Source: Zootoca vivipara (taxonomy: Eukaryota). From it: a stretch of 64,000 nucleotides of DNA. The notes under the pieces are model-generated. The model had not been told where the DNA came from. It did not search any database and saw only the letters and a list, made by a program, of their open reading frames with translations. This document shows positions 3,560 through 61,189 of this stretch, one piece after another. The translations under genes and the position numbers were made by a program. The stretch's first letter is position 1. Each line of letters opens with the position of its first letter. The stretch lies in assembly GCF_963506605.1 (NCBI RefSeq), contig NC_083294.1, forward strand, positions 9,610,001 to 9,674,000. Direction: 5' to 3'.

Positions 3560-3695
3560 CAGGCATCCCCAAACTGCAGCCCTCCAGATGCTTTAGCCTA
3601 CAACTCCCATGATCCCTAGCTAACAGGACCAGTGGTCAGGGAAGATGGGAATTGTAGTCCAAAACATCTGGAGGGCCGAAGTTTGGGGGTGCCTG
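3560..3695. mobile_element. hAT-type MITE
   Basis: TIRs CAGGCATCCCCAAACT / AGTTTGGGGGTGCCTG; 8-bp TSD ACTTAAAA (3552-3559, 3696-3703). Confidence 0.85.
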
Positions 3696-11800: not shown

Positions 11801-14800
11801 TTCAGGTAGAGATTCTGGAGAGCTGCTGACATTCAAGAGTGCTGGACTAGATGGACGAATGCTCTGACTCAATAAACCTTCCTATGTCTCTATACTCTGG
11901 CACAAGTCAATAAGCATTTATTTTCCACCCCATATTATCAAACCAACAGAAGAACACAGGAAGCTGCCTTATATAAAGTCATTTCACAGGGGTTCATCAG
12001 TGCTGTCAACACTGCCGTGCAGCAGGTCTCCAGGGTATTAGGAAGGGACAATTCCAGCCCTACCTGAAGATGCTGGAGAATGAACCTAGGCTCTTCCTGC
12101 ACGCAAAGGAGATGCTCTGCCACTGAAGTATTGCCCTACCTTTGTTTGTGGAGCAGAAGACTTACCCCAAACCAAGATGCTTGAATGTCTCCCAACCTTA
12201 ATTCCGGGTTGCTAACTTTCTTTAGGCTCGGAATAGCCGGTGAACTGTAGCCAAGAACAAATCCAAAGCTTAGTGGTCCCAGCACAGCAGCAAACGTAGC
12301 CAGGAAGAGATTCTGATTTTGGACCTTGCTGCACAAGAAGCAAAAAATGAAAAATGTGGGGAGGAGACACACACACAAACCACCACCCTTTCTTGCAGGC
12401 CATGCAGCTCAGCAGACACCTGAAAACATCACACGCTTTTGTTTCAGATCTTTCAATTGCAGATGCAGATGTATTAGTGCTTCCGCTGACCCTTCCTTTT
12501 GAAAGAAACTGTTTAAGAACATAAGAACAGTCTGCTGGATCAGGCCAATGGTCCACCTATTCCAGCATCCTGTTCTCACAGCGACCAATCAGATGTCCTT
12601 GGGAAGCACACAAGCAAGACCTGAGTACCACAGTGTTCTCTCTAGCTGTGATTCCCAGCAACTGGCATTCAGAGGCATGTGACAGTGGAGGAAGAACGTA
12701 TAGCTACTGCAGCTGGTAGCCACAGATAGCCACAGCCTTCATGAATTTGTCCGATCCTCTTTTAAAGCCATCCAAGTTGGTGGCCATCACTACTTCTATT
12801 TAGTTCAGCACCCAAACACACAAATATTTAAGCATGCCGGAAACTGCCTTATACCAAGTCAGACCATTACACTGACTGGCAGCTGGCCTCCAGGGATTGA
12901 GATGGGGGACACATCCCAGTTCCACCAAGGGGCATTGCCAGAGTTAAAGGACTAATTCCTACCAGGCAAAAATATTATGGGTGCGAAGCAGGGCTGGGAG
13001 GGGTGGGGGACATATGGCCAGAGAATAGTTCAAGAATAGTTCCAAGGGCCAAATGAAAAGGCCACATTCCCCAGCCCTTGTGCAAGACACTAGAAAGGGA
13101 CGTGCTGTGTGGCTCCCACTCAATTATCAAGGCACAGCTGTGGCAATAAGATGTGATTAGGGAAAACTGATAACTGATAACGTCTTCTCTATTGGTGATA
13201 CTGTCTCCCAGCAGATAAAAAGTTACCACTGTGGCGGGAAGGTAAATGGAGTTTCCATGCGCTCTGGCACTCGTCACGGTCTTCCTTGCATCAGTAGCAG
13301 TTTAGTCATGCTAGCCACATGACCCGGAAATCTGTCTGTGGACAAATGCCAGCTCCCTCGGCCTGAAAAGCAAGATGAGTGCTGCACCCCATAGTCGCCT
13401 TAGACTGGACTTAACCATCCAGAGGTCCTTTACCTTTACCTTTTACTGTCTCCCAATAGGTCCCATTCGTAAAGCTGGTTCAGTAAATGGCTGTAAAGGG
13501 GCCCCTGACCATCAGGTCCAGTCATGTCCGACTCTGGGGTTGTGGCGCTCATCTCGCTCTATAGGCCGAGGGAGCCGACGTTTGTCCGCAGACAGCTTCC
13601 AGGTCATGTGGCCAGCATGACAAAGCTGCTTCTGGCGAACCAGAGTAGCGCACAGAAACGCTGTTTACCTTCCCGCTGGAGCGGTCCCTATTTATCTACT
13701 TGCACTTTGATGTGCTTTCGAACTGCTAGGTGGGCAGGAGCTGGGACCGAGCAACGGGAGCTCACCCTGTTGCAGGGATTCGAACCGCCGACCTTCTGAT
13801 CAGCAAGCCCTAGACTCTGTGGTGTAACCCACAGCGCCACCTGAAATGGCTTTAAAAGCTTAGACAAATTCACAAGCCTATAAATGGCTACTGGCCAAAA
13901 AGACAATGTTCTGCCTCCACTGTCAGAGGCAGTCTGCCTCTGAATACAAGGTGCTGGAAACTGCAGGAGGGGAGAGTTGCTGCTATATTCACATTCAGCT
14001 ATCACACAAAACAATGATAGGGTCTTCAAATGGAGATGACTGACCAGCATCTTGGGATTGTGGTAGAAAACTCAGTGAAAACACCAAAAAAGAAAAACAG
14101 CAACCAGATGTTGCAGCATGGAGTGTTCCAGCCAGACATGCCCTTTTCATGGATTATCCATTCCATTTCCTCACTTCCTGAATCTCTCTCCCAGCAGTCA
14201 GCATTCCACAGATACCAAGCATGCTCAGTCGTCACTGGCCTGCTTTTGAAAGAGTTTCCCTCCCTTGGGACCCTGCCCTTCCCCCCCCCCCCCGGCCACT
14301 AAACACTCCCCCTCCAAGCCTGCTGTTATCTTGTGTACAAATGGTGCCATTTGGGCTGTGCAAGGATAGGCATGCCTGAACATTAGAAATAGCTCAGATT
14401 ATGTATTTAGAAGAAAAGTCCTCTTGTTCCAAGATTCTCAATCAGATTTGGAAAACCTCTCAGGATGATTCTGTTGAGCCAACAATTCAGAATCTGGCAA
14501 GCAGAGACGTCATTCATCCAACTCCATTACAAACAGCTGATACAGTGTGAGGGCAAAGGGGCAGAGGCTGACTATTGGACTTTTAGATAACCAACATGAG
14601 GACCTTTTCTTCTTTGTCCCTCAGTCCATATTTGGCAAAGCCTTATATGCCTGGCCGGCAGTGCATAACTAGAACAATTGTGTTTTGTTTTCCAAAAACA
14701 GGACATTTGCATTTAAAAAAAAAACCAAAAGCAACTGTACAAAAAGCAAGAACCCCAAAGTACATGGTGTAATCTGGAGAGAGTACCAAACTCTCAAAGA

Positions 14801-15873: not shown

Positions 15874-16226
15874 GGGACCCAGGTGGCGCTGTGGTTAAAC
15901 CACAGAGCCTAGGGCTTGCTGATCAGAAGGTCAGCGGTTCAAATCCCTGTGACGGGGTGAGCTCCCGTTGCTTGGTCCCAGCTCCTGCCAACCTAGCAGT
16001 TCGAAAGCACGTCAAAATGCAAGTAGATAAATAGGAACCGCTACAGCAGGAAGGTAAACGGCGTTTCCGTGTGCTGCTCTGGTTTGCCAGAAGCGGCTTT
16101 GTCATGCTGGCCACATGACCCGGAAGCTATACGCCGGCTCCCTCGGCCAATAATGCGAGATGAGCGCGGAAACCCAGAGTCAGTCACGACTGGACCTAAT
16201 GGTCAGGGGTCCCTTTACCTTTACCT
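15874..16226 (+). mobile_element. Full-length Sauria SINE flanked by a 94-bp direct repeat
   Basis: gggacccaggtggcgctgtgg...ccctttacctttacc; duplicated flank 15782-15875 / 16227-16320. Confidence 0.95.
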
Positions 16227-18527
16227 TAAGGATTGGCACTCTGAGAACTGAGAACACCATAACCATCAATGATCCAAAAATAACAGTGGGAAACTACTGT
16301 TAATAGACCCAACGGAAAGGTCTCAAAGAAGCCAGGAAGGCTTTCACTTTATAAAAAGCTCTTTCATCAGGCTGGGTGTGAAGCAAAAAGTATAGGACAC
16401 TGTTGCTGGGCAGGATTGTGGGGCACTGTCCTGACTCCCATCCAACACATGCAAGCAGAGGCTCTTACTTGGCTCAGCAGCAGACGCAAGACTTGGGAGT
16501 CACGATTCAGAAGTTCAGGAGCAGAGCAAGTTATTCAAAACTGGATGGAAGCACCAAAAATGTTCCAAGAAGTTTCTACACTGTGCCTGTCAAACCATTG
16601 TGCCCTCACCTGAGAGACTATCTTGCCTTGTGATGATGTTGGAACTGCAAATGTGCATTCTGTTGGGGTATGTGGATCTGTTACCATTTATAAAGGCAGA
16701 ACCTGATCCTAGAGGGCAAGGCAGCACCCTCCTGCTCAGGGTCTTGTTCAGTCACTGCCATCTCCTGTTCAGCCTCCCTAGCTTTCATTGATGCTTCTTG
16801 TTCTGCAGCAAGGTTGGAAGAAAGAGCTGGAATACCTGCTTCCCCTTCCACAGCAACTGAACTTGGGGTGGAAAGGAAAGGTACTCCTCCTCCTCCAGCC
16901 CAGATTATCCCACTTCAGCCCCCTCCCCCATTTATTCCTACTTCATCAGAACATGCCAACTGAATCCCAGGTCTTATGACATCCTCTCCAGACTGGTACT
17001 TTTTGTTTTGTTTTTGCGGCAGGTGGGTGTATTCTGCAACATGTCATTGAATAGAGCATTAGTGCTGGAATCCATACTAGATTATCCACACACCAGAGCA
17101 TTTCATTAGTTTTCTGCAATGCTTTTTCACTGTTACTACTTTACTGCCATCTATAGGGGAACTACAGCACAATAAAAGCTGCAACTGCAAAAAAGCCCCT
17201 CTCCTCCTGAACATTTGTGGTATGAAAAATTATCAGATTTCAGCAGGAAGCTAGCAGGACATGCACATGCCCAAAACAGTATGGGAAACGGGATCATGTA
17301 TAACTTCTCTCATACCATCATGAGTACAAATCACAAGGAATGCAGAATAAAAAAGGACATCTAGAGGCGCCCCATAATGAGAATACTTGGTACAGTTTCA
17401 GCTGCTCCATCTCAAAAAGGTTATTGAAGAGTATCAAGCAATCCAGAAAGGTTGGAAAAAGTGGCTAGGTGTGATGGCGTCATAGAAAAGGCACTCTGTA
17501 TTTGTTCAATCACATGCTTTCCTGTGCAGCATCAGATTTGAGCCAGAGAAATCTAGGAGCAAATCCATGCTCTGCCAGCAAACTAATGGGGATCACTTTG
17601 TGCCAGCCTCCCTCTAATCTGGGTCATCCAAGAACAACTGGACAGTCACCACCTGCCTGAACACCTTACCCCAAAAGGTAACACTTGTAACTGGCCCTGA
17701 AGCTGGAACAATTTCCAAGATCTAGGGAAATTTATTTGGGAGTGGCCTCACAACCACCATCTTCAAGGCAGTTGGGGTCGCTCCCTCTCGTGACAAGCTA
17801 TGACTCAATTCGTGATCTTTGCTGATCACCACTCTTTTGCATGGGCAGCTTCCCCTCCCCCCCCCACATCAAGTAAAACAATGGAAATAACTGACGAATC
17901 ACGTCGGTTCTGCCCCACCCAACAAAAGCCCTGACTACACCCATGCTCTTCTGCCCTGTAGCCTATTACAGTATTAGGCAAGAGGGATGGGCTGAGTAAA
18001 CAAGCAGCCAGCCTGAAAAGTACTGCAGTTCAAAAACGCAGAGGGAGCATTTGCTGAGGGAGACCGAACAGTCAGAGAACCCCACAAAGGAAGACACACG
18101 TCCCTCACTGGCACAAAAGGGAGTGGTCAAACAGGCACTATTATTTCTCTCTGGCACCACACAGGCGCTATTAACCATATCTGTAGTGCTCTTCTTGGGA
18201 GTCGTCTCACAATCTAACACCACCAACACGCCCAACGCACAAAACTTGTTTCACCAGAGAAGTCGTGGGACAGGTCCCAGGATCAGTCTCCAACTTCTTT
18301 AGTAGCAGGCCTAGGAAGACCCCTCCCCAAGACCCCTGTGGAAGTACAGAATGTGACGCTAGACTGATAAAATAGCCTAGGACGGGAGGACCGGACAGCT
18401 TGGCAAAAAGCGTGCAAAATGAAGGAACTTAGGAGAGAGAATGAATTAAAATCTAGTTGAAGTAGGGTGGAAGCGGGATAATGTAAGGAAAAAAAATTGG
18501 GGGAGGCTTTGGGCGGCGCAAACTCAC

Positions 18528-18720
18528 CTTCCCTTCCCGTCCAAGGACTAAAGCGTCGCTCTTCACCTCCAAATCAAAGCCGGCAACTACAATCTTGAGA
18601 ATCAACTGCAAGGCGGAACTAAACAGTTGGGACCACGTTTTCACGGTAGAGAGGAAAATAACAACGGACCAGAAACTAAAACGATTAAATCCTTTCCCTC
18701 ATGTGATTGTACTTCCGGCT
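18528..18720 (-). other. SLC2A8: Putative non-coding first exon of SLC2A8
   Basis: Strong donor AAG|GTGAGT at 18528/18527 in a CpG-containing region. Coding exon 1 has an acceptor and so needs an upstream exon. The 5' boundary is a guess. Confidence 0.55.
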
Positions 18721-18772
18721 TGGCCTCTCTTTTGCCCTGGAGGGAGAAAGTAAATAACAACTCTTTGACTCT

Positions 18773-19071
18773 AAAAAAAAAAAAATCCTTCCAGTAGCAC
18801 CTTAGAGACCAAATAAGTTTGTCATAGGTATGAGCTTTCGTGTGCATGCACACTTCTTCAGATAGTGTACACTGAAACAGTACACTGAAACAGAAGTCAC
18901 CAGTCCCTTCTGTATAGTCAGAGGGTGGGGAGGGGTATTTACTCAGAAGTAATAAGACAGCTACTTTGAGATCTTGTATAGAATGTCCTGGGAGATTGAA
19001 GTGTTCTACTGGTTTCTCTATCTTGTGATTCCTGATGTCAGATTTATGTCCATTTATCCTTTGGCGTAGGG
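18773..19071 (-). mobile_element. Penelope-like retroelement fragment (GIY-YIG endonuclease remnant plus terminal repeat)
   Basis: Minus-strand QTLRQRINGHKSDIRNHKIEKPVEHFNLPGHSIQDLKVAVL is typical of PLE GIY-YIG C-terminal region. Flanking 9-bp direct repeat TTTGACTCT (18764-18772, 19072-19080). Terminal repeat is shared with 60929-61131. Confidence 0.88.
18828..18865 (-). ncRNA. Minimal type I hammerhead ribozyme motif (Penelope-associated)
   Basis: Minus-strand UAU-CUGAAGA-A-GUGUG(CAUG)CACAC-GAAA-GC-UC|AUA: full catalytic core, stem II, palindromic AGCU stem III, 3-bp stem I. Confidence 0.7.
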
Positions 19072-20160
19072 TTTGACTCTCAGACATAGGAAAATAAGGA
19101 GCCACACATCTCAACAATGTACAATGGCAACTCCCGTTCTCAATTTCAACTGGTTTTCCAATGCTGTAAAGAGACCCAAGAGACGGAGAGCCGTCGGTGT
19201 CTAAATTCGAGAGACTTTGCAGCAGGTGCAAGAGAATCATGTCCAACGGTGTCACCCTTCACATTTTATATCGGTGGTTCAGAAAATGCTCTATATTTCT
19301 ATCTCTATGGGTAACTTAAGATAGATTTTTTTAAAAAAGTTTCCGTTTCTGGACGGAAGTGACCCCGAAATCCGGGGCGGGAAAGAGGCGCGAGGAAGAT
19401 GACGTCAGGTGCTCACGCCGGAAGTGCCTGTGGTAGAGTGTTTGCTGGGACCCGGCGGCGAAAGGTTGGACCCCCGCCCCCGAAAAATAAAGTGTGTGGG
19501 AGGGGGCGAGGAAGAGAAGAGGGGCAGTGCGGTGTGAGGAGGGAGGACGGCTGAGGAGAGCGGCGGGAGGGGGCGGGGCTCAGGTGGGTTGTCATAGAGA
19601 CCGCCTGCAGTGGGGGGGGCTGAGGGGCGGGGCGGGGCTAGTGGAAGGGGAGACGTAGGCCCTTTGGGGTGCAGTTGAGGAGAGGCTTCCGTTGAGGTAG
19701 GTGCAAAAGAAGTCGCGGGAGAGCCGGGATTGAGGAGGGGGTAAGGGGTGGAGAATAATGGGGTCGGGGAGTTGTGGCGTTGTGTTTTAATTATTAGCTG
19801 TTATGTATTATCCTATTTACACCTTCCTTTATTCCTGGGAGCTCAACGTATTCTCCCCTTCCCTGTTTTATCCCCACTGGGCAGCCGGCTTCATGAGCAA
19901 ATGGTTGTTTGAATCCTGGTTTCGCAGGCACGGGTGCGACACTCTAGCCCAGCCTTTCCCAACCTTAGGTCCCTCCCCAGGTGTCTTTGGATGGTCCTGC
20001 TAGCTAGGGATGAGGGGAATTGTAGTCCGGTAACATCTGGAGACCACCCAGCTGATACCACAAGACTCTGCATGTCGCATATGGCAGTTCTTGTTCTCTA
20101 ATACAGTTCTTGTTCTCTAAGGTATTGAACTAGTTAACATGGGTGTTCTCCCCACCCCAG

Positions 20161-20205: not shown

Positions 20206-20699
20206 GTGTGTCCTGAGGTGGGATCCCTTGGCCAGCAGCAAATGTAGTTGGACTATATGCTTTGGATGTAGAATGTTCTAGACAGGTTGAATGTTGTCAT
20301 AATTACTTTAAAAGAAAAACAAATCATGTATCAGGTGGTGGAAAGGGTCATCTGCATGCAAAGTAGATGCTCTACGACTGAGCTATGACCCTTCCCCTAT
20401 CCTCCTTCTCCAGATTCAGATCCAGAAACCTAAGATGCATAGGCTGATAAAGAGTGTTTTCCATGCCACATGTGTGTGCTCTTTTATGGGAGACGTATAA
20501 TTATTATTATTTTTACATTTTGACTACACACTAATGCACAATTGTACTGACCCAATCCTTTGAAATAAATGACAAAAGTTCAGTGCAGTTTTACCGATAG
20601 GTGTGCTCAACTCTGTGTTGTATTGTGGCCAAAGTTTATAAAAGTAATCCACTTTTCTGATTCCACATCAAGACCCAACTTGAAAGAAAAAAATACACA

Positions 20700-35600: not shown

Positions 35601-38600
35601 GCCTCCATAGAAAAAGATAATATTAATTACTGGAAGATTATCTCTAGCCGAACCAAAGTGTACAATGCGCCTATAACAATCCCTGCAGATGTATGGGAAG
35701 AGCACTATAGTGCATTGTTTAGGGATCACGAGCACCCCGCGCCGTTTGCTATCTCTTTGGATAACTCACCATTGTGGCCCCCAATTTCTGAATCTGAAGT
35801 CTCTTCTCTAATATTACAAATGAAATCTGGTAAAGCTCCAGGAAGTGATTTCATTGTTGCTGAAATTCTAATATCGCAAATAAATTGGTGGGCTCCGGTC
35901 CTTGCAAATCTGTTCGCATATATAGACGCCTCAGCCCATATCCCTAAAGATTGGGGGTTGGCCATAATTGTTCCTATATTTAAAAAGGGTAACCCCTCTG
36001 ATCCATCTAATTATAGACCAATTAGTCTCTTGAACGTGATCTGCAAATTATACAGAAAACACCTGGGCCTAAAATTGTGTGAATGGTTGGACCATAATGA
36101 CTTATTAGAAACACTGGAAAAAGTCACTGTATGTGGGCTTTGTGGACCTAAAGGCAGCATTTGATTCCGTGTCTAGGTGAAGGCTTTGGGCTAAACTGGC
36201 AGATATGGGCATCAACAGAAGGCTATTACTTCTGTTAATTAAATTACATGAAAATAATACCCTTCAGATAAGACTTGCACAGGATGGCAGACTTTCCAAT
36301 GGAATTCCAGTTCAAAAAGAGGTCAGACAAGGATGCTTACTGGCTCCATTTTTATTTAACATCTATGCTAATTCCTTAATCACATGTAATTGATACTCCC
36401 CCACCTGTGTTTTCCAGTGGCAGAAAAGTTCCAATTTTAATGTACGCAGATGACGCTGTACTTCTTTCTCAAACCAAAGTTGGCTTGAAACAAGCGTTAG
36501 AGAAATTTAGTGATCAATGTAACACCGAACTGCTAACAATTAATTTTGCTAAAATTAAATTGTCCGCTTTGGCCGCTCTTTTAGGAAACACAATTTGAAT
36601 ATGAAGGGAAATGCCATAGATCAAACTAAGAACTTCCAATATTTAGGCATCACCTTCTCTTACAACGTCAAATTCTCAGCACATTTGACCGCATCCACCA
36701 CCTCAGCAGAAAGAAGTGCTAACGCCATATTTAGAAGGAAAGGTGCTGGTTTCCTTCCTATGGCCTTAAAAGTCTTTCAGGAAAAATCTCTGGCCCAACT
36801 TCTATACGGTTCACAAATTGGACTCTCTGCCAATCTTAAGATTCTTGAAACAGTTCAATCAAAGTTTCTTAGATCCCTATTCGGCACCCCTAAGAGCACA
36901 TCTAATGTAATATTAAGAAAAGAGGCAGGAATGCCCAGAGTTGAATTAAAAGTCGGGGAACAAGCAGTATCCCTCTGTTTGAAAATTCATTATAACCCAA
37001 AGGGAATGTTATCTCATTTCCTGGCCGCAGCCCCTTTTATCCACCTTGGCTTACGCAAATTGCTAACAAGATCAAACAAATTGGCCTAAACCCAGAATAT
37101 CTCTTTAATGGTACTCTGAATAAGGCAAAAACAATCATTACTCAGAGGCTTTTCAATATTGAACTGCAAAAAGAAGATGCCTTACTTCCTAAGAACTACA
37201 AGTGTCTAAAATATTGGCCTAATCTGGCAGCTGCCCCGTATCTAACCAATATTTTTTATGAATCTCATAGATGGGCCTTTTCCAAAGCCCGATTTGATGC
37301 GATGCCTTCAGCTGTGTTACATGGCAAATTCTTGTGTATACCAATCGAAGAGCGCTTTTGTCCATGCATGTCCAACAAGGTGGAATCTGTTATTCACATT
37401 CTATTATTCTGTGAATTCTATAGTGAAGAACGATCGTGACTCATTTTACCCCTATTATCAAAATTCACACCCTTGCAATATTATCTGGAATTTCCCCCCG
37501 AAACATTACGCAAATTCCTTCTGGAAGATTCTTTGAGCTCAGTATCCTACAGCAGGCATGTCCAACAGGTAGATCGTGATCTACCGGTAGATCACTGGAC
37601 GTCTGTGGTAGATCACCGGTAGATCAGTGGCTCCCCCCAAACAAGCTAGAAAACTTTGGCTGCCCTAAAAAAAGTTCAACATCTTTTCCCTGCACCCCTA
37701 AAATGACCTGAACCACAAAAAACAGGGCTTTCCTTCCAAATAAAAAAGCTCAACATCGCTTTCTTCCCTAAAGGAGCTCAACAACAAAACAGGACTTTCC
37801 TTCTTAAAAAAAAGCTCAACAACTTTGACTTGAACCCCAAAAAGGAGGGTAGATCACTTCCAGTTTTTAACTCTTTGAGTAGATCGCTGTCTCTTGGACG
37901 TTGGCCAGCCCTGTCCTACAGTGTGGCCAAATTTCGCACCCTATCTATTAAAAAACGTAAATCTCTTTTATTGAATAACATATTATAACAATTTGTCCTG
38001 CCCTCCGATGATGATATTGCTACTACAGTTCTTAGTTGAATCTCTTATTCTTTTATGGTGTTTTATTCCACTGGACCTGTATTTTAAGTATGTATATTCA
38101 ATTAGTATATTGACTGTTAAAACCCCATATCGGTCGTTTTTATTGTTTATGTAGAGAATTATGCAGAATTTCTGGTTTGATATGCTGGCTGTTAGCCGTA
38201 ATAAACATTGACTGACTGCATACAGCCCAATAGTAATAATGGGTTATCTCAAACTAAGTTTGTCTAGCAGTAGACCTATTGAAATCAATGGATCTAAAAT
38301 AACCACGCCCATTATTTTCAATGGGCCTTTTCTGGGTAGAACCAGCATGGGATACAATCCAGTTTTATCATCATCAGTATGCATGGTACTTTGCAGTGTA
38401 ACATAAGCAAAAAAATAAAAGTACAGGTCTCTGCCCTGAGAAATTTATAAACTAGACGGGGAGGAAAGGGCTTAATTGCAAGGCTCAAAGGCAGTTACAC
38501 AAACTTTTCCCATAACGACTGTGGGTTAAAAAGAGCTGCACCCATGAGGCTTTGCAGATGTTGAAGTGGGAGAGCTTTCCTTCAAGAGAGAGGCAGGGTT

Positions 38601-46105: not shown

Positions 46106-47428
46106 CTACTTCACCACTTCTAATAGTATATTCTGTAGCACTTTGTTAACTCTGTCTATTAGTGACGTGTTATATCTCCAGAGTGTTGTGTCCTTGATCA
46201 GGGATTCCCTGGGCAAATCCGGTTGAAAAGGAGACCGACAGTGGAAGACAATTGCAACATCAGCAGGGACTTCCACACTGCCTCCGATCCCCTGAAGGAC
46301 AGAGTGAACAGACGTCTGAACCACTTTCCTCGGATCAACAATCATTTTCCTTGGGTTTATGACCTCTTTCCTGTCTGGTTCTCGGAGGACATGCTGCAGG
46401 ATGTTGACTCCAGGTACCATATTCCAAGAATGTGGAACATGATCAGGGGGGAAGGTGAAGACATTATTTGGGAAAATGTGGTTCTCAAAGAGGAAGATAC
46501 CAATCTCCGGATTTTGTTTCTCAAGTTTTTGCATCAAGGTTTTCCAATCCAAATGTTGAATGGGAAGAATAATTTCATCAATGTCATTCAGCAGAACGTA
46601 CCTGCTCCTGTACATATTCCGGTAGACACAGTCATTCAGAGCAGCGATTTGTCCATAGTAGCCAATTTCGGTCCCGTCGTCCGTGAAATGCCATTTATTA
46701 GAAACACTCAGGTAGGATGTGATTGGCCAGGGCACCACCTCCACGGTCCCTTCCACCACATAGAATTGAAGGACTTTCTCCATCAACTGGCTGCAGCTGT
46801 TCTTATAGATCACCACCTTCTGCATTCCAAGGAGTTTATACATTTCAATGCTCTGCACGAACTGGAGGACATTGTTATAGTCTCCAAACATGGTGGAGAT
46901 GCACACTGTGAAGTCCACCAGAGTGCTCTGTCGCTGGCGATTTTTTATTTCAAACTGTGGTGACATGCCACTGTCAGATCCTTCACCAGATGACTGCAAT
47001 GCCATGTAACGAGGCTCACAGTGTGAGGGTTCCAAACAAATCAAGTCTGCAACCACATAGGGAAATCCAAAACGATCCAAGTGGATATCTATTGCAGCCT
47101 TAGAGATAAAGGCCACATCATCAGCTGGGCAACAGAACCAGCAATAGTGGTCCTTCACTTCCTTGTGATGTACAATTCCAATCACTCGAGTCTGCTTTTC
47201 CACCCTGTCATCAAAGTATGGAGTGATGATAAAAGATCTGTTGTCACTCAAAGCAGAGATTGAGTTATTGGTGACCCATCCTTTGCAGAGGTCTTTTCCT
47301 TTCTGTGCAACAAGTTTTGGTAGTAAAGAGTATTTCCGTATCCGGTAGTAGGAAAGTGTCAGCATAGAGGCAAGAGCCACCAGACATACCACTGTAGCTA
47401 AAAAAGTTCTTCTTCGAAAATGGAACAT
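46106..47428 (-). CDS. Glycosyltransferase family 92 (DUF23) protein, beta-1,4-galactosyltransferase (galt-1 / avian beta4GalT(Gal))-like, ~440 aa, single coding exon
   Basis: Long uninterrupted ORF with type II topology: MFHFRRR then hydrophobic TFLATVVCLVALASMLTLSYY. GT92 motifs CWFCC, FTVCISTMFGDY, YYGQIAALNDCVYR, DxD in LNDIDE, NPRKMIVDP..VHSV. Acceptor ttctctctgttgcag|47474; first in-frame ATG at 47428. Confidence 0.9.
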   Translation of the reverse strand: MFHFRRRTFLATVVCLVALASMLTLSYYRIRKYSLLPKLVAQKGKDLCKGWVTNNSISALSDNRSFIITPYFDDRVEKQTRVIGIVHHKEVKDHYCWFCCPADDVAFISKAAIDIHLDRFGFPYVVADLICLEPSHCEPRYMALQSSGEGSDSGMSPQFEIKNRQRQSTLVDFTVCISTMFGDYNNVLQFVQSIEMYKLLGMQKVVIYKNSCSQLMEKVLQFYVVEGTVEVVPWPITSYLSVSNKWHFTDDGTEIGYYGQIAALNDCVYRNMYRSRYVLLNDIDEIILPIQHLDWKTLMQKLEKQNPEIGIFLFENHIFPNNVFTFPPDHVPHSWNMVPGVNILQHVLREPDRKEVINPRKMIVDPRKVVQTSVHSVLQGIGGSVEVPADVAIVFHCRSPFQPDLPRESLIKDTTLWRYNTSLIDRVNKVLQNILLEVVK

Positions 47429-48525
47429 GATCTCCAGCTTGAGATCCACACCAGCATCTGTTCCACTGCTGAGCCTGCAACAGAGAGAAGGTTGTTGAAG
47501 ATATTTACCGTGTTACATAAAATAGTAATTGCATTGTATTTTAAGTTACTGTGAAAAATCTATGAACACATGATGAAAGCTTGTATTTTTCTGTTGCAAT
47601 ATATGCCGTGGGCTAGAATTGGGACTGAGTCATGGATATTTGGATAGAATTTCATAATGTTTGTTTAGGTTTATGAAGTAGCCCATTCAGAGTCATAGAG
47701 CTGTTGCAAGCTGGCACAGATCTTCTCTGGGTGTTGCCGAAGATGCAAGCAAGCAGGAAACAAAGCGGGACAAAGCTCCTTTATTTTTAGCTGGAAAACC
47801 TGGTTTGAGATGTTCTAGAGCCTTATACACTGGGACCAGTATATGAAAGGAGGGAAATGTATAAGTGAGACAATGTATCAATTACTGTTCTCGTAACATT
47901 TAAATCAGGTTTCTGAAGTAAAGCTTTAATACTTAATTATTGTGATGGAAATTTTTTTTCTATACAAAAGACCAGAACAGAGAGAAATATGCAAATATGA
48001 ATAATTCACTGCAAATATAACTAATTCACAAAGGTGAGGCAGGGAGATCTGTTTGTGGTTATTGACACAGCTCCATTTAATTTCATACTACGACAAAAGG
48101 CATCAAACAATCTGATAGTAAATAAATATATTGCCAATTCTTAAATATGTGTATGTCAAAACATGCATTCTTCAAATACAGTGTCACATATGGAACAAGA
48201 ATATATGCTGCATCGTCTGCATAACTAGGTGTATATGAATTGAGCTCAGTATTTAAAAAATAACTTCTAAAGCTCTATAGCAGGGGTGGAGAACCTGAAG
48301 CCCAGAGGCTGAATGCAGACCTCCAAGCCTCTCTGTTCTCCCTTAAGATTCTCACCATCTGTTTTTTTTTTTTTTTTTTTTTGCTGCTGAGCAGCAATGC
48401 CAGATGGATGCAGTTGGGAAAGCTTCTCTTGTGGCAGAGCTGGGGGTGAGTTTTTTTTAAGGGGGGGTAGGCCAGACACCCATAAAAGGTGCACTGAGGT
48501 GTGGAATTCTTGACTAGCTCCTCAG

Positions 48526-60451: not shown

Positions 60452-61189
60452 CAGAGATTCCCCCCCCCCTAAAAAAAAAAGTTTAGGGGTACTCTCATTT
60501 CCCTACTCACAGGGGCGTCTTACCCATAGAGGCTAGTGGCGCCACAGCACCAAGTTCTGGAGGGCGCCAGGGAAGAGGCGGAGGCTGGACGCAGCACCTC
60601 CCGGCATCAGCTCGCCGCCCTCACCCACCTCAGCCATGCCACACCAAAGCAGCACTGCATCCGGAGCCTCCGTCTTCCATGGCCACCACGGCATGAAGCA
60701 GCCAGCTGAGCTGGGAGACACTGCGTCCAGCCTCCACCTCTTCCCCACTGGAGGAGCTGCCCTCCAGCCACTGACCGCCTTCTCTAGTCCTGCTGGCAGT
60801 GCCATCCTCCCTAAAAAAGGTCGACAACTCTGGGAAACGGGGGGGGGGCAGGAGGAAGCTTTGCACAACAGCCCTGCCTACTCATATTGAAATACTGCCC
60901 CCAATGAGGCCAAACAAATTCACAAAATAAAATAAAAAAAATTCCTTCCAGTAGCACCTTAGAGACCAACTAAGTTTGTCATTGGTATGAGTTTTCGTGT
61001 GCATGCACACTTCTGTTTCTGTATCTGTTTCAGTGTATCTGAAGAAGTGGTCTCTAAGGTGCTACTGGAAGGATTTTTTCAAATTTTGTTTCGACTACGT
61101 CAGACCAACACGGCTACCTACCTGTAACTAGATTCACAAAATGTTTAGGGGTATGCGCACCTTTGCGATCCCCCAGAAAAAAAACATTG
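60452..61189. mobile_element. hAT MITE containing a second hAT MITE (60510-60876, TSD CCTACTCA) and a Penelope fragment
   Basis: 8-bp TSD ATAG(C/T)GGC at 60444-60451 / 61190-61197. Confidence 0.7.
60929..61131. mobile_element. Penelope-like element remnant with inverted terminal repeats
   Basis: TCCTTCCAGTAGCACCTTAGAGACCA inverted against TGGTCTCTAAGGTGCTACTGGAAGGA; 11-bp flanking repeat ATTCACAAAAT; same family as 18773-19071. Confidence 0.85.

Follow-up and report, generated by a model that had tools for sequence, protein, structure and literature searches.

Genes and repeats of the window

The window analysed here is a 64-kb stretch of DNA from Zootoca vivipara, in which sugar-porter exons were found on the minus strand (7 of the 121 frames scanned) and F-box and WD40 exons on the plus strand (3 of 122). 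An EXXXLL signal in the first coding exon (15360–15206) of the transporter leads us to take this gene for SLC2A8, and the F-box/WD40 gene, judged by its N-terminal sequence, is presumably FBXW2. An earlier, sequence-only reading had set the locus between two genes of these names; the exons on the two strands are as it described, while the names are without a named database match, the PDB and Atlas searches having yielded no name for either host gene. According to the available part of PMC2730553, an EXXXLL signal is known for GLUT8. Two papers were found that name SLC2A8 along with FBXW2, and of the 222 papers matched in the search that gave PMC2730553, none of the 10 listed contains the term 'hammerhead ribozyme'.

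A 1189-nt contig from run X2 (presumed RNA) ends at 18589 and departs from the genome at 18528, exactly at a GT donor (18527). It contains a spliced, non-coding first exon as far as this was observed (18528–18589, minus strand), which probably belongs to the sugar-porter (SLC2A8-like) gene through a join to the coding exon 15360–15206. The contig end at 18589 is a lower bound for the transcription start. A motif at 18711–18718 resembles an ETS site, and this presumed ETS-like motif suggests that transcription of the sugar-porter gene starts near 18700. On the plus strand, the F-box/WD40 (FBXW2-like) gene has a CpG-rich putative promoter at 19340–19750, which includes motifs that we take to be ETS-like and CRE-like.

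Several other features were observed in the window. Fragments of a reverse transcriptase (RVT_1, below the cut-off) at 36181–36595 on the plus strand belong to another retroelement, and a glycosyltransferase family 92 domain is encoded in an open frame of 468 aa at 46109–47512 on the minus strand. A tRNA-like match just over the Rfam cut-off (20343–20392, minus strand) is probably the head of a SINE. A MITE-like hairpin repeat with sub-threshold microRNA matches occupies 3579–3676, and a similar-looking repeat is located at about 19950–20050. The transporter introns harbor related repeats at 15880–16240, 13490–13840 and 13230–13440, which, as we assume, resemble Sauria SINEs; the repeat at 15880–16240 is bordered by a long direct duplication.

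The 299-bp insertion and its hammerhead motif

The segment 18773–19071 (minus strand, 299 bp) derives from the 3' end of a Neptune-like Penelope-like element (PLE), with a 5' truncation and an internal deletion. Three pieces of the locus, 18787–18870, 18873–18950 and 18949–19080, match dispersed loci (765, 1088 and 1007 candidates, respectively, with 40 scored for each), and in longer copies these pieces keep their order and orientation, spaced 238 bp wider. A perfect 9-bp direct repeat, with identical left (18764–18772) and right (19072–19080) copies, sits exactly at both limits of homology to other copies. Thus, 18773–19071 is one retrotransposition product, flanked by its target-site duplication. 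The hammerhead motif, previously placed inside the bidirectional promoter with no report of a 299-bp transposon insertion, is located in the end repeat (pLTR) of this single insertion and does not belong to a host promoter.

The upstream part of the insertion (18950–19071, minus strand) is, by its translation, a coding fragment of a GIY-YIG endonuclease, and it differs from the nearest longer copies by 0–1 mismatches and one gap. The longer copies L067 and L070 match PF01541, whereas the 42-aa piece of the window alone does not; it aligns to the EN region of the 925-aa ORF of the long copy L084. Comparison with L064 and L067 placed the junction of a 238-bp internal deletion at 18949–18950 (minus strand), and this deletion took the end of the ORF together with its stop codon, as well as the upstream pLTR portion, in which there is a box that we take to be CCAAT-like. 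The remnant of the pLTR (18773–18949, minus strand) retains a presumably TATA-like stretch (18907–18917), the hammerhead and a T-rich end, and is devoid of the optional 'tail' extension. Its last 76 nt are identical (76/76) to those of L006 and L010, two loci picked for closeness. Because the target-site duplication is intact and the sequence nearly identical to that of other copies, the insertion is likely recent.

The motif spans 18829–18864 on the minus strand and is a minimal type I hammerhead with a 3-bp stem I, the core, a 5-bp stem II and a loop-less palindromic stem III (AGCU), as judged from its letters and from 14,756 exact genomic copies. It starts with UAU (18864–18862), CUGAAGA (18861–18855) and an extra A (18854), continues with stem II, in which GUGUG (18853–18849) and CACAC (18844–18840) enclose the loop CAUG, and ends with GAAA (18839–18836), GC (18835–18834), UC (18833–18832) and AUA (18831–18829). 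Cleavage is predicted after C17, that is, between 18832 and 18831. Both the letters and this cut site are those given in the sequence-only reading. The predicted cut site lies 242 nt upstream of the observed end of the first exon; it would be about 110 nt beyond the likely transcription start, and so outside the mRNA unless the start is in or upstream of the insertion.

All parts of the minimal hammerhead (min-HHR) core, CUGANGA, GAAA and UH, are present, as are the extra base before stem II and the G10.1–C11.1 pair, and stem I, which has 4–5 bp in min-HHRs, is 3 bp long in the window copy. Stem III consists of the palindrome AGCU at 18836–18833 without a loop, so that one RNA is unable to close it and a partner RNA is required. 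Together with the PLE copies described below, this bears out the earlier view of a Penelope-type minimal hammerhead that needs a dimer. An alternative long stem III was not seen for the family, as judged by eye only. The previously proposed Rfam/Infernal search was run and gave no hammerhead family among the 16 matches in the window at E ≤ 10; this result is not counted against the hammerhead, since a single copy of the motif is without a stem III. A loose core pattern was found in the window at chance level (7 occurrences vs. 5.5 expected).

Stem I is disrupted by a private lesion (18863–18892, minus strand) composed of a 13-bp tandem duplication (18867–18892) and 5 extra nt. The 18-nt addition lies just 5' of the core and replaces the stem I G of the family, which shortens the stem from 4 to 3 bp, and it is predicted to give rise to a competing hairpin; the local duplication earlier said to weaken the motif is thus real, the whole lesion being larger than the duplication itself. 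The 22-mer across the lesion junction has a single occurrence in the genome. Stem II and its loop (18840–18853) form a perfect 14-nt palindrome throughout the family, and several inverted genomic junctions are found at or near it.

The parent family and its distribution

In the 1.44-Gb genome, the exact 36-mer of the motif has 14,756 occurrences (one copy per 98 kb), while its reversed control has none (0). The stem I G is present in 13,376 of the 14,756 exact copies and missing from 1380, the window copy among them. The native stem I is therefore 4 bp long, as had been stated, although the copy at about 61030 that had been used as an intact comparator has GTAT on the plus strand, ATAC on the minus strand and the whole core on neither. 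That site belongs to a second insertion of the same family (60929–61131), which is two-armed and inverted. Its inverted arms are 44 nt long, its target-site duplication measures 11 bp, and it contains no intact hammerhead. It is also the source of a sub-threshold mir-559 match. The two-armed inverted layout is known for PLEs (PMC8557442). Upstream queries recovered 34 pLTR copies from 38 loci, 26 of them with an intact core and 21 with a 4-bp stem I, and 40 arbitrary 3-kb stretches contained six copies with up to three mismatches (in 5 of the 40 stretches).

A protein search gave 113 scored stop-free matches among 9412 candidates, and many of these are found in open frames of about 925 aa. In each of the three long copies fetched, a 925-aa ORF is flanked by hammerheads about 3.03 kb apart, one in each direct-repeat pLTR. 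The ORF of L084, the one long copy scanned, contains RVT_1 (E-value, 5e-12) and GIY-YIG (E-value, 7e-5) domains, and P0002 shows a further feature of EN+ Penelope-like elements as defined in PMC8557442. By every structural test run, the parent family is an EN+ Penelope-like element. The CX4CxxC of P0002 corresponds to the Neptune-type CX2-5CxxC linker upstream of GIY-YIG, and from this linker, which is common to Neptune and Nematis (PMC8557442), the family was classed as Neptune-like. The many uninterrupted 925-aa frames suggest that the element was recently active. A literature search returned no paper on Neptune, Penelope and lacertids together, and in that search the family was unreported for the genome.

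The full-length copies L083–L085 have the hammerhead core in common with the subfamily of the window and differ from it in the flanks. Four exact hammerhead copies with a 598-bp period are located at G000:C1:2777822–2779651, and such a tandem array could permit dimers in cis, in the manner of retrozymes.

The density of one exact copy per 98 kb makes a location near promoters unsurprising. A 64-kb window would by chance hold 0.66 exact copies, and with an assumed 20,000 start sites, some 200 genes would have one within 1 kb upstream. Other copies of the family also sit near CpG islands. After three of the 59 loci L002–L060 had been dropped as self or overlapping, CpG-island-like neighbours were found for 8 of 56 family loci and 3 of 40 arbitrary stretches (p = 0.35), or for 12 of 56 and 11 of 40 at a lenient threshold (p = 0.63), so that there is no significant enrichment.

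In the RNA data, the family is plentiful on both strands, and nearly all of its reads carry flanks from elsewhere. Most raw reads from three runs fit the locus only in part (2116 of 2121, 1287 of 1299 and 1928 of 1931), as expected from other copies of the family. In this sample, which comprises about 6 in 100 reads of each run, the depth is zero on the unique flanks 18006–18712 and 19117–19924, first exon included, and thus the raw reads are uninformative on transcription here. No pile-up of read ends was detected anywhere in the stretch, which is a weak test with fragmented libraries.

Predicted activity, rival explanations and known hammerheads

The folding energies are secondary-structure predictions that leave Mg2+, tertiary contacts and protein out of account, and a linker served to emulate the dimers. 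In the monomer fold, the predicted probability of stem II is 0.19 for the window copy vs. 0.70 for a native copy, and that of the first stem I pair is 0.0001 vs. 0.17. The native copy is predicted to have an extended, interrupted stem I, whereas the window copy favours a hairpin that absorbs the core and stem II. The predicted cost of forming the active homodimer, relative to the monomer ensembles, is 20.5 kcal/mol for the window copy and 10.0 kcal/mol for the native pair. With one core active, the modelled gap is 8.3 kcal/mol for a native core cutting window RNA, 7.5 kcal/mol for a native core cutting native RNA, and 13 kcal/mol for the window core. These values suggest that the window copy is a poor enzyme, yet a possible substrate; in principle, a native partner RNA could cut it about as well as it cuts native RNA. 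In the predicted tandem folds, stem II palindromes pair between molecules, in competition with the active dimer.

Taken together, the results make it highly probable that the motif, which a single and likely recent insertion brought to this site, is the end-repeat hammerhead of a Neptune-type PLE and, for the neighbouring genes, likely an inert passenger. With its endonuclease and reverse transcriptase, the element would have placed a truncated copy in an AT-rich stretch separating the two promoters. This copy would have acquired its 238-bp deletion and its 18-nt duplication in the course of that event or later. A single RNA of the window copy would have no stem III and would prefer the competing hairpin; it would undergo cleavage only through pairing with another RNA of the family, and the element's protein would probably assist. 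The ribozyme likely serves the RNA of the parent element, in tandem or protein-bound form, and the solo damaged copy is likely silent.

Of the other explanations, the one in which the insertion acts on its neighbours as DNA (a spacer, a TATA-like remnant or a silencing target) rather than as a ribozyme appears unlikely. It could, for example, let the sugar-porter gene start weakly from further upstream, or shift the balance of the two promoters. The insertion adds 308 bp to the gap of about 700 bp between the putative promoters and is oriented as the sugar-porter gene with its TATA-like stretch kept, but the upstream half of the pLTR, CCAAT-like box included, has been deleted. According to the available part of PMC6765202, the pLTRs of PLEs usually contain promoters; here, however, no read or listed contig links the element to its unique flanks, in a test of low power. 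Still less probable is the cutting at the motif, in trans with family RNA, of a minus-strand RNA, either a sugar-porter transcript started upstream or an antisense transcript from the F-box promoter. The core and cut site are intact, family RNA is plentiful (2121, 1299 and 1931 reads in three runs), and the modelled gap for a native core on window RNA (8.3 kcal/mol) is near that of the native pair (7.5 kcal/mol). For such cleavage, however, two RNA molecules would have to find each other with a 4-bp helix as the nucleus, and cutting is slow even in tandem dimers in the data available from PMC4209133. The absence of read-end pile-ups throughout the stretch also speaks against it, weak as that test is, as does the stem I lesion, which argues against selection for catalysis, and the window copy is not distinguished from thousands of others.

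The sequence-only reading had proposed that the motif could cut or trim transcripts of the SLC2A8/FBXW2 promoter region. This proposal fits poorly with a probably young, private and damaged copy. The copy is not joined in cis by a partner hammerhead, it is located upstream of the one piece of the first exon that was observed, and its active fold is predicted to be far worse than that of its family. We give as little credence to the wider idea that RNAs of intact family copies, with the element's protein, cut host transcripts crossing solo copies throughout the genome and would here trim antisense or upstream-started RNA. Least credible of all is a domesticated, conserved host ribozyme akin to the intronic hammerheads of amniotes. 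Amniotes do have domesticated hammerheads, according to the accessible part of PMC6155905, and in the window the location near two genes alone points this way; the motif, however, is found within a transposon fragment with an intact target-site duplication, and is minimal rather than full, damaged, and identical to thousands of copies.

The reading of the motif as a passenger PLE hammerhead has little consequence as found, since it adds one more remnant of this kind, and high-copy repeats reach promoters by chance. If PLE hammerheads did cleave host RNAs in trans, the tens of thousands of solo minimal hammerheads of reptile genomes would thereby acquire a function; as a test case, an undamaged copy within an abundant mRNA would be more suitable than the window copy.

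As described in the accessible part of PMC6155905, domesticated amniote hammerheads (introns of RECK, CTCL and DTNB, and the Clec2 3' UTR) resemble the window motif in being near or in a host gene; they differ in their conservation between species and, in the case of the intronic ones, in the conserved tertiary contacts with which they are depicted. Unlike them, the window motif is a high-copy, minimal and damaged repeat fragment outside the observed transcript. Another related system is PAc, a Poseidon element of Anolis carolinensis (Frangieh et al. 2024, PMC11167929), likewise a lizard PLE with a pLTR hammerhead, an AT-rich target and an optional tail. PAc belongs to the Poseidon clade and its ORF starts inside stem II, as the available text has it, whereas the family described here is Neptune-like and has its first ATG some 100 nt past the hammerhead. 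The same part of that paper presents the anole hammerhead as apparently protein-assisted and dispensable for insertion in vitro, and records no RNA-seq reads beginning or ending at its cut site.

In its design, the motif is akin to the min-HHRs. According to the available part of PMC4209133 (Cervera and de la Pena 2014), these are established in the pLTRs of metazoan PLEs, including Neptune of fish, and motifs resembling them occur in turtle and snakes. In that paper, an S. mansoni min-HHR on its own was not cleaved, and its dimers were cleaved only at a low level; among Xenopus retrozyme dimers, 1 of 9 was cleaved according to the accessible part of bioRxiv 10.64898/2026.07.22.740005. The window copy differs from the min-HHRs of PMC4209133, with their stem I of 4–5 bp, in its 3-bp stem I (4 bp in its own family) and its 5-bp stem II. 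It shares with them the type I core, the extra base before stem II, the G10.1–C11.1 pair and the palindromic positions 15.2–16.2, as well as the loop-less stem III, the location in a pLTR, and the occurrence mostly as dispersed, single, truncated copies.
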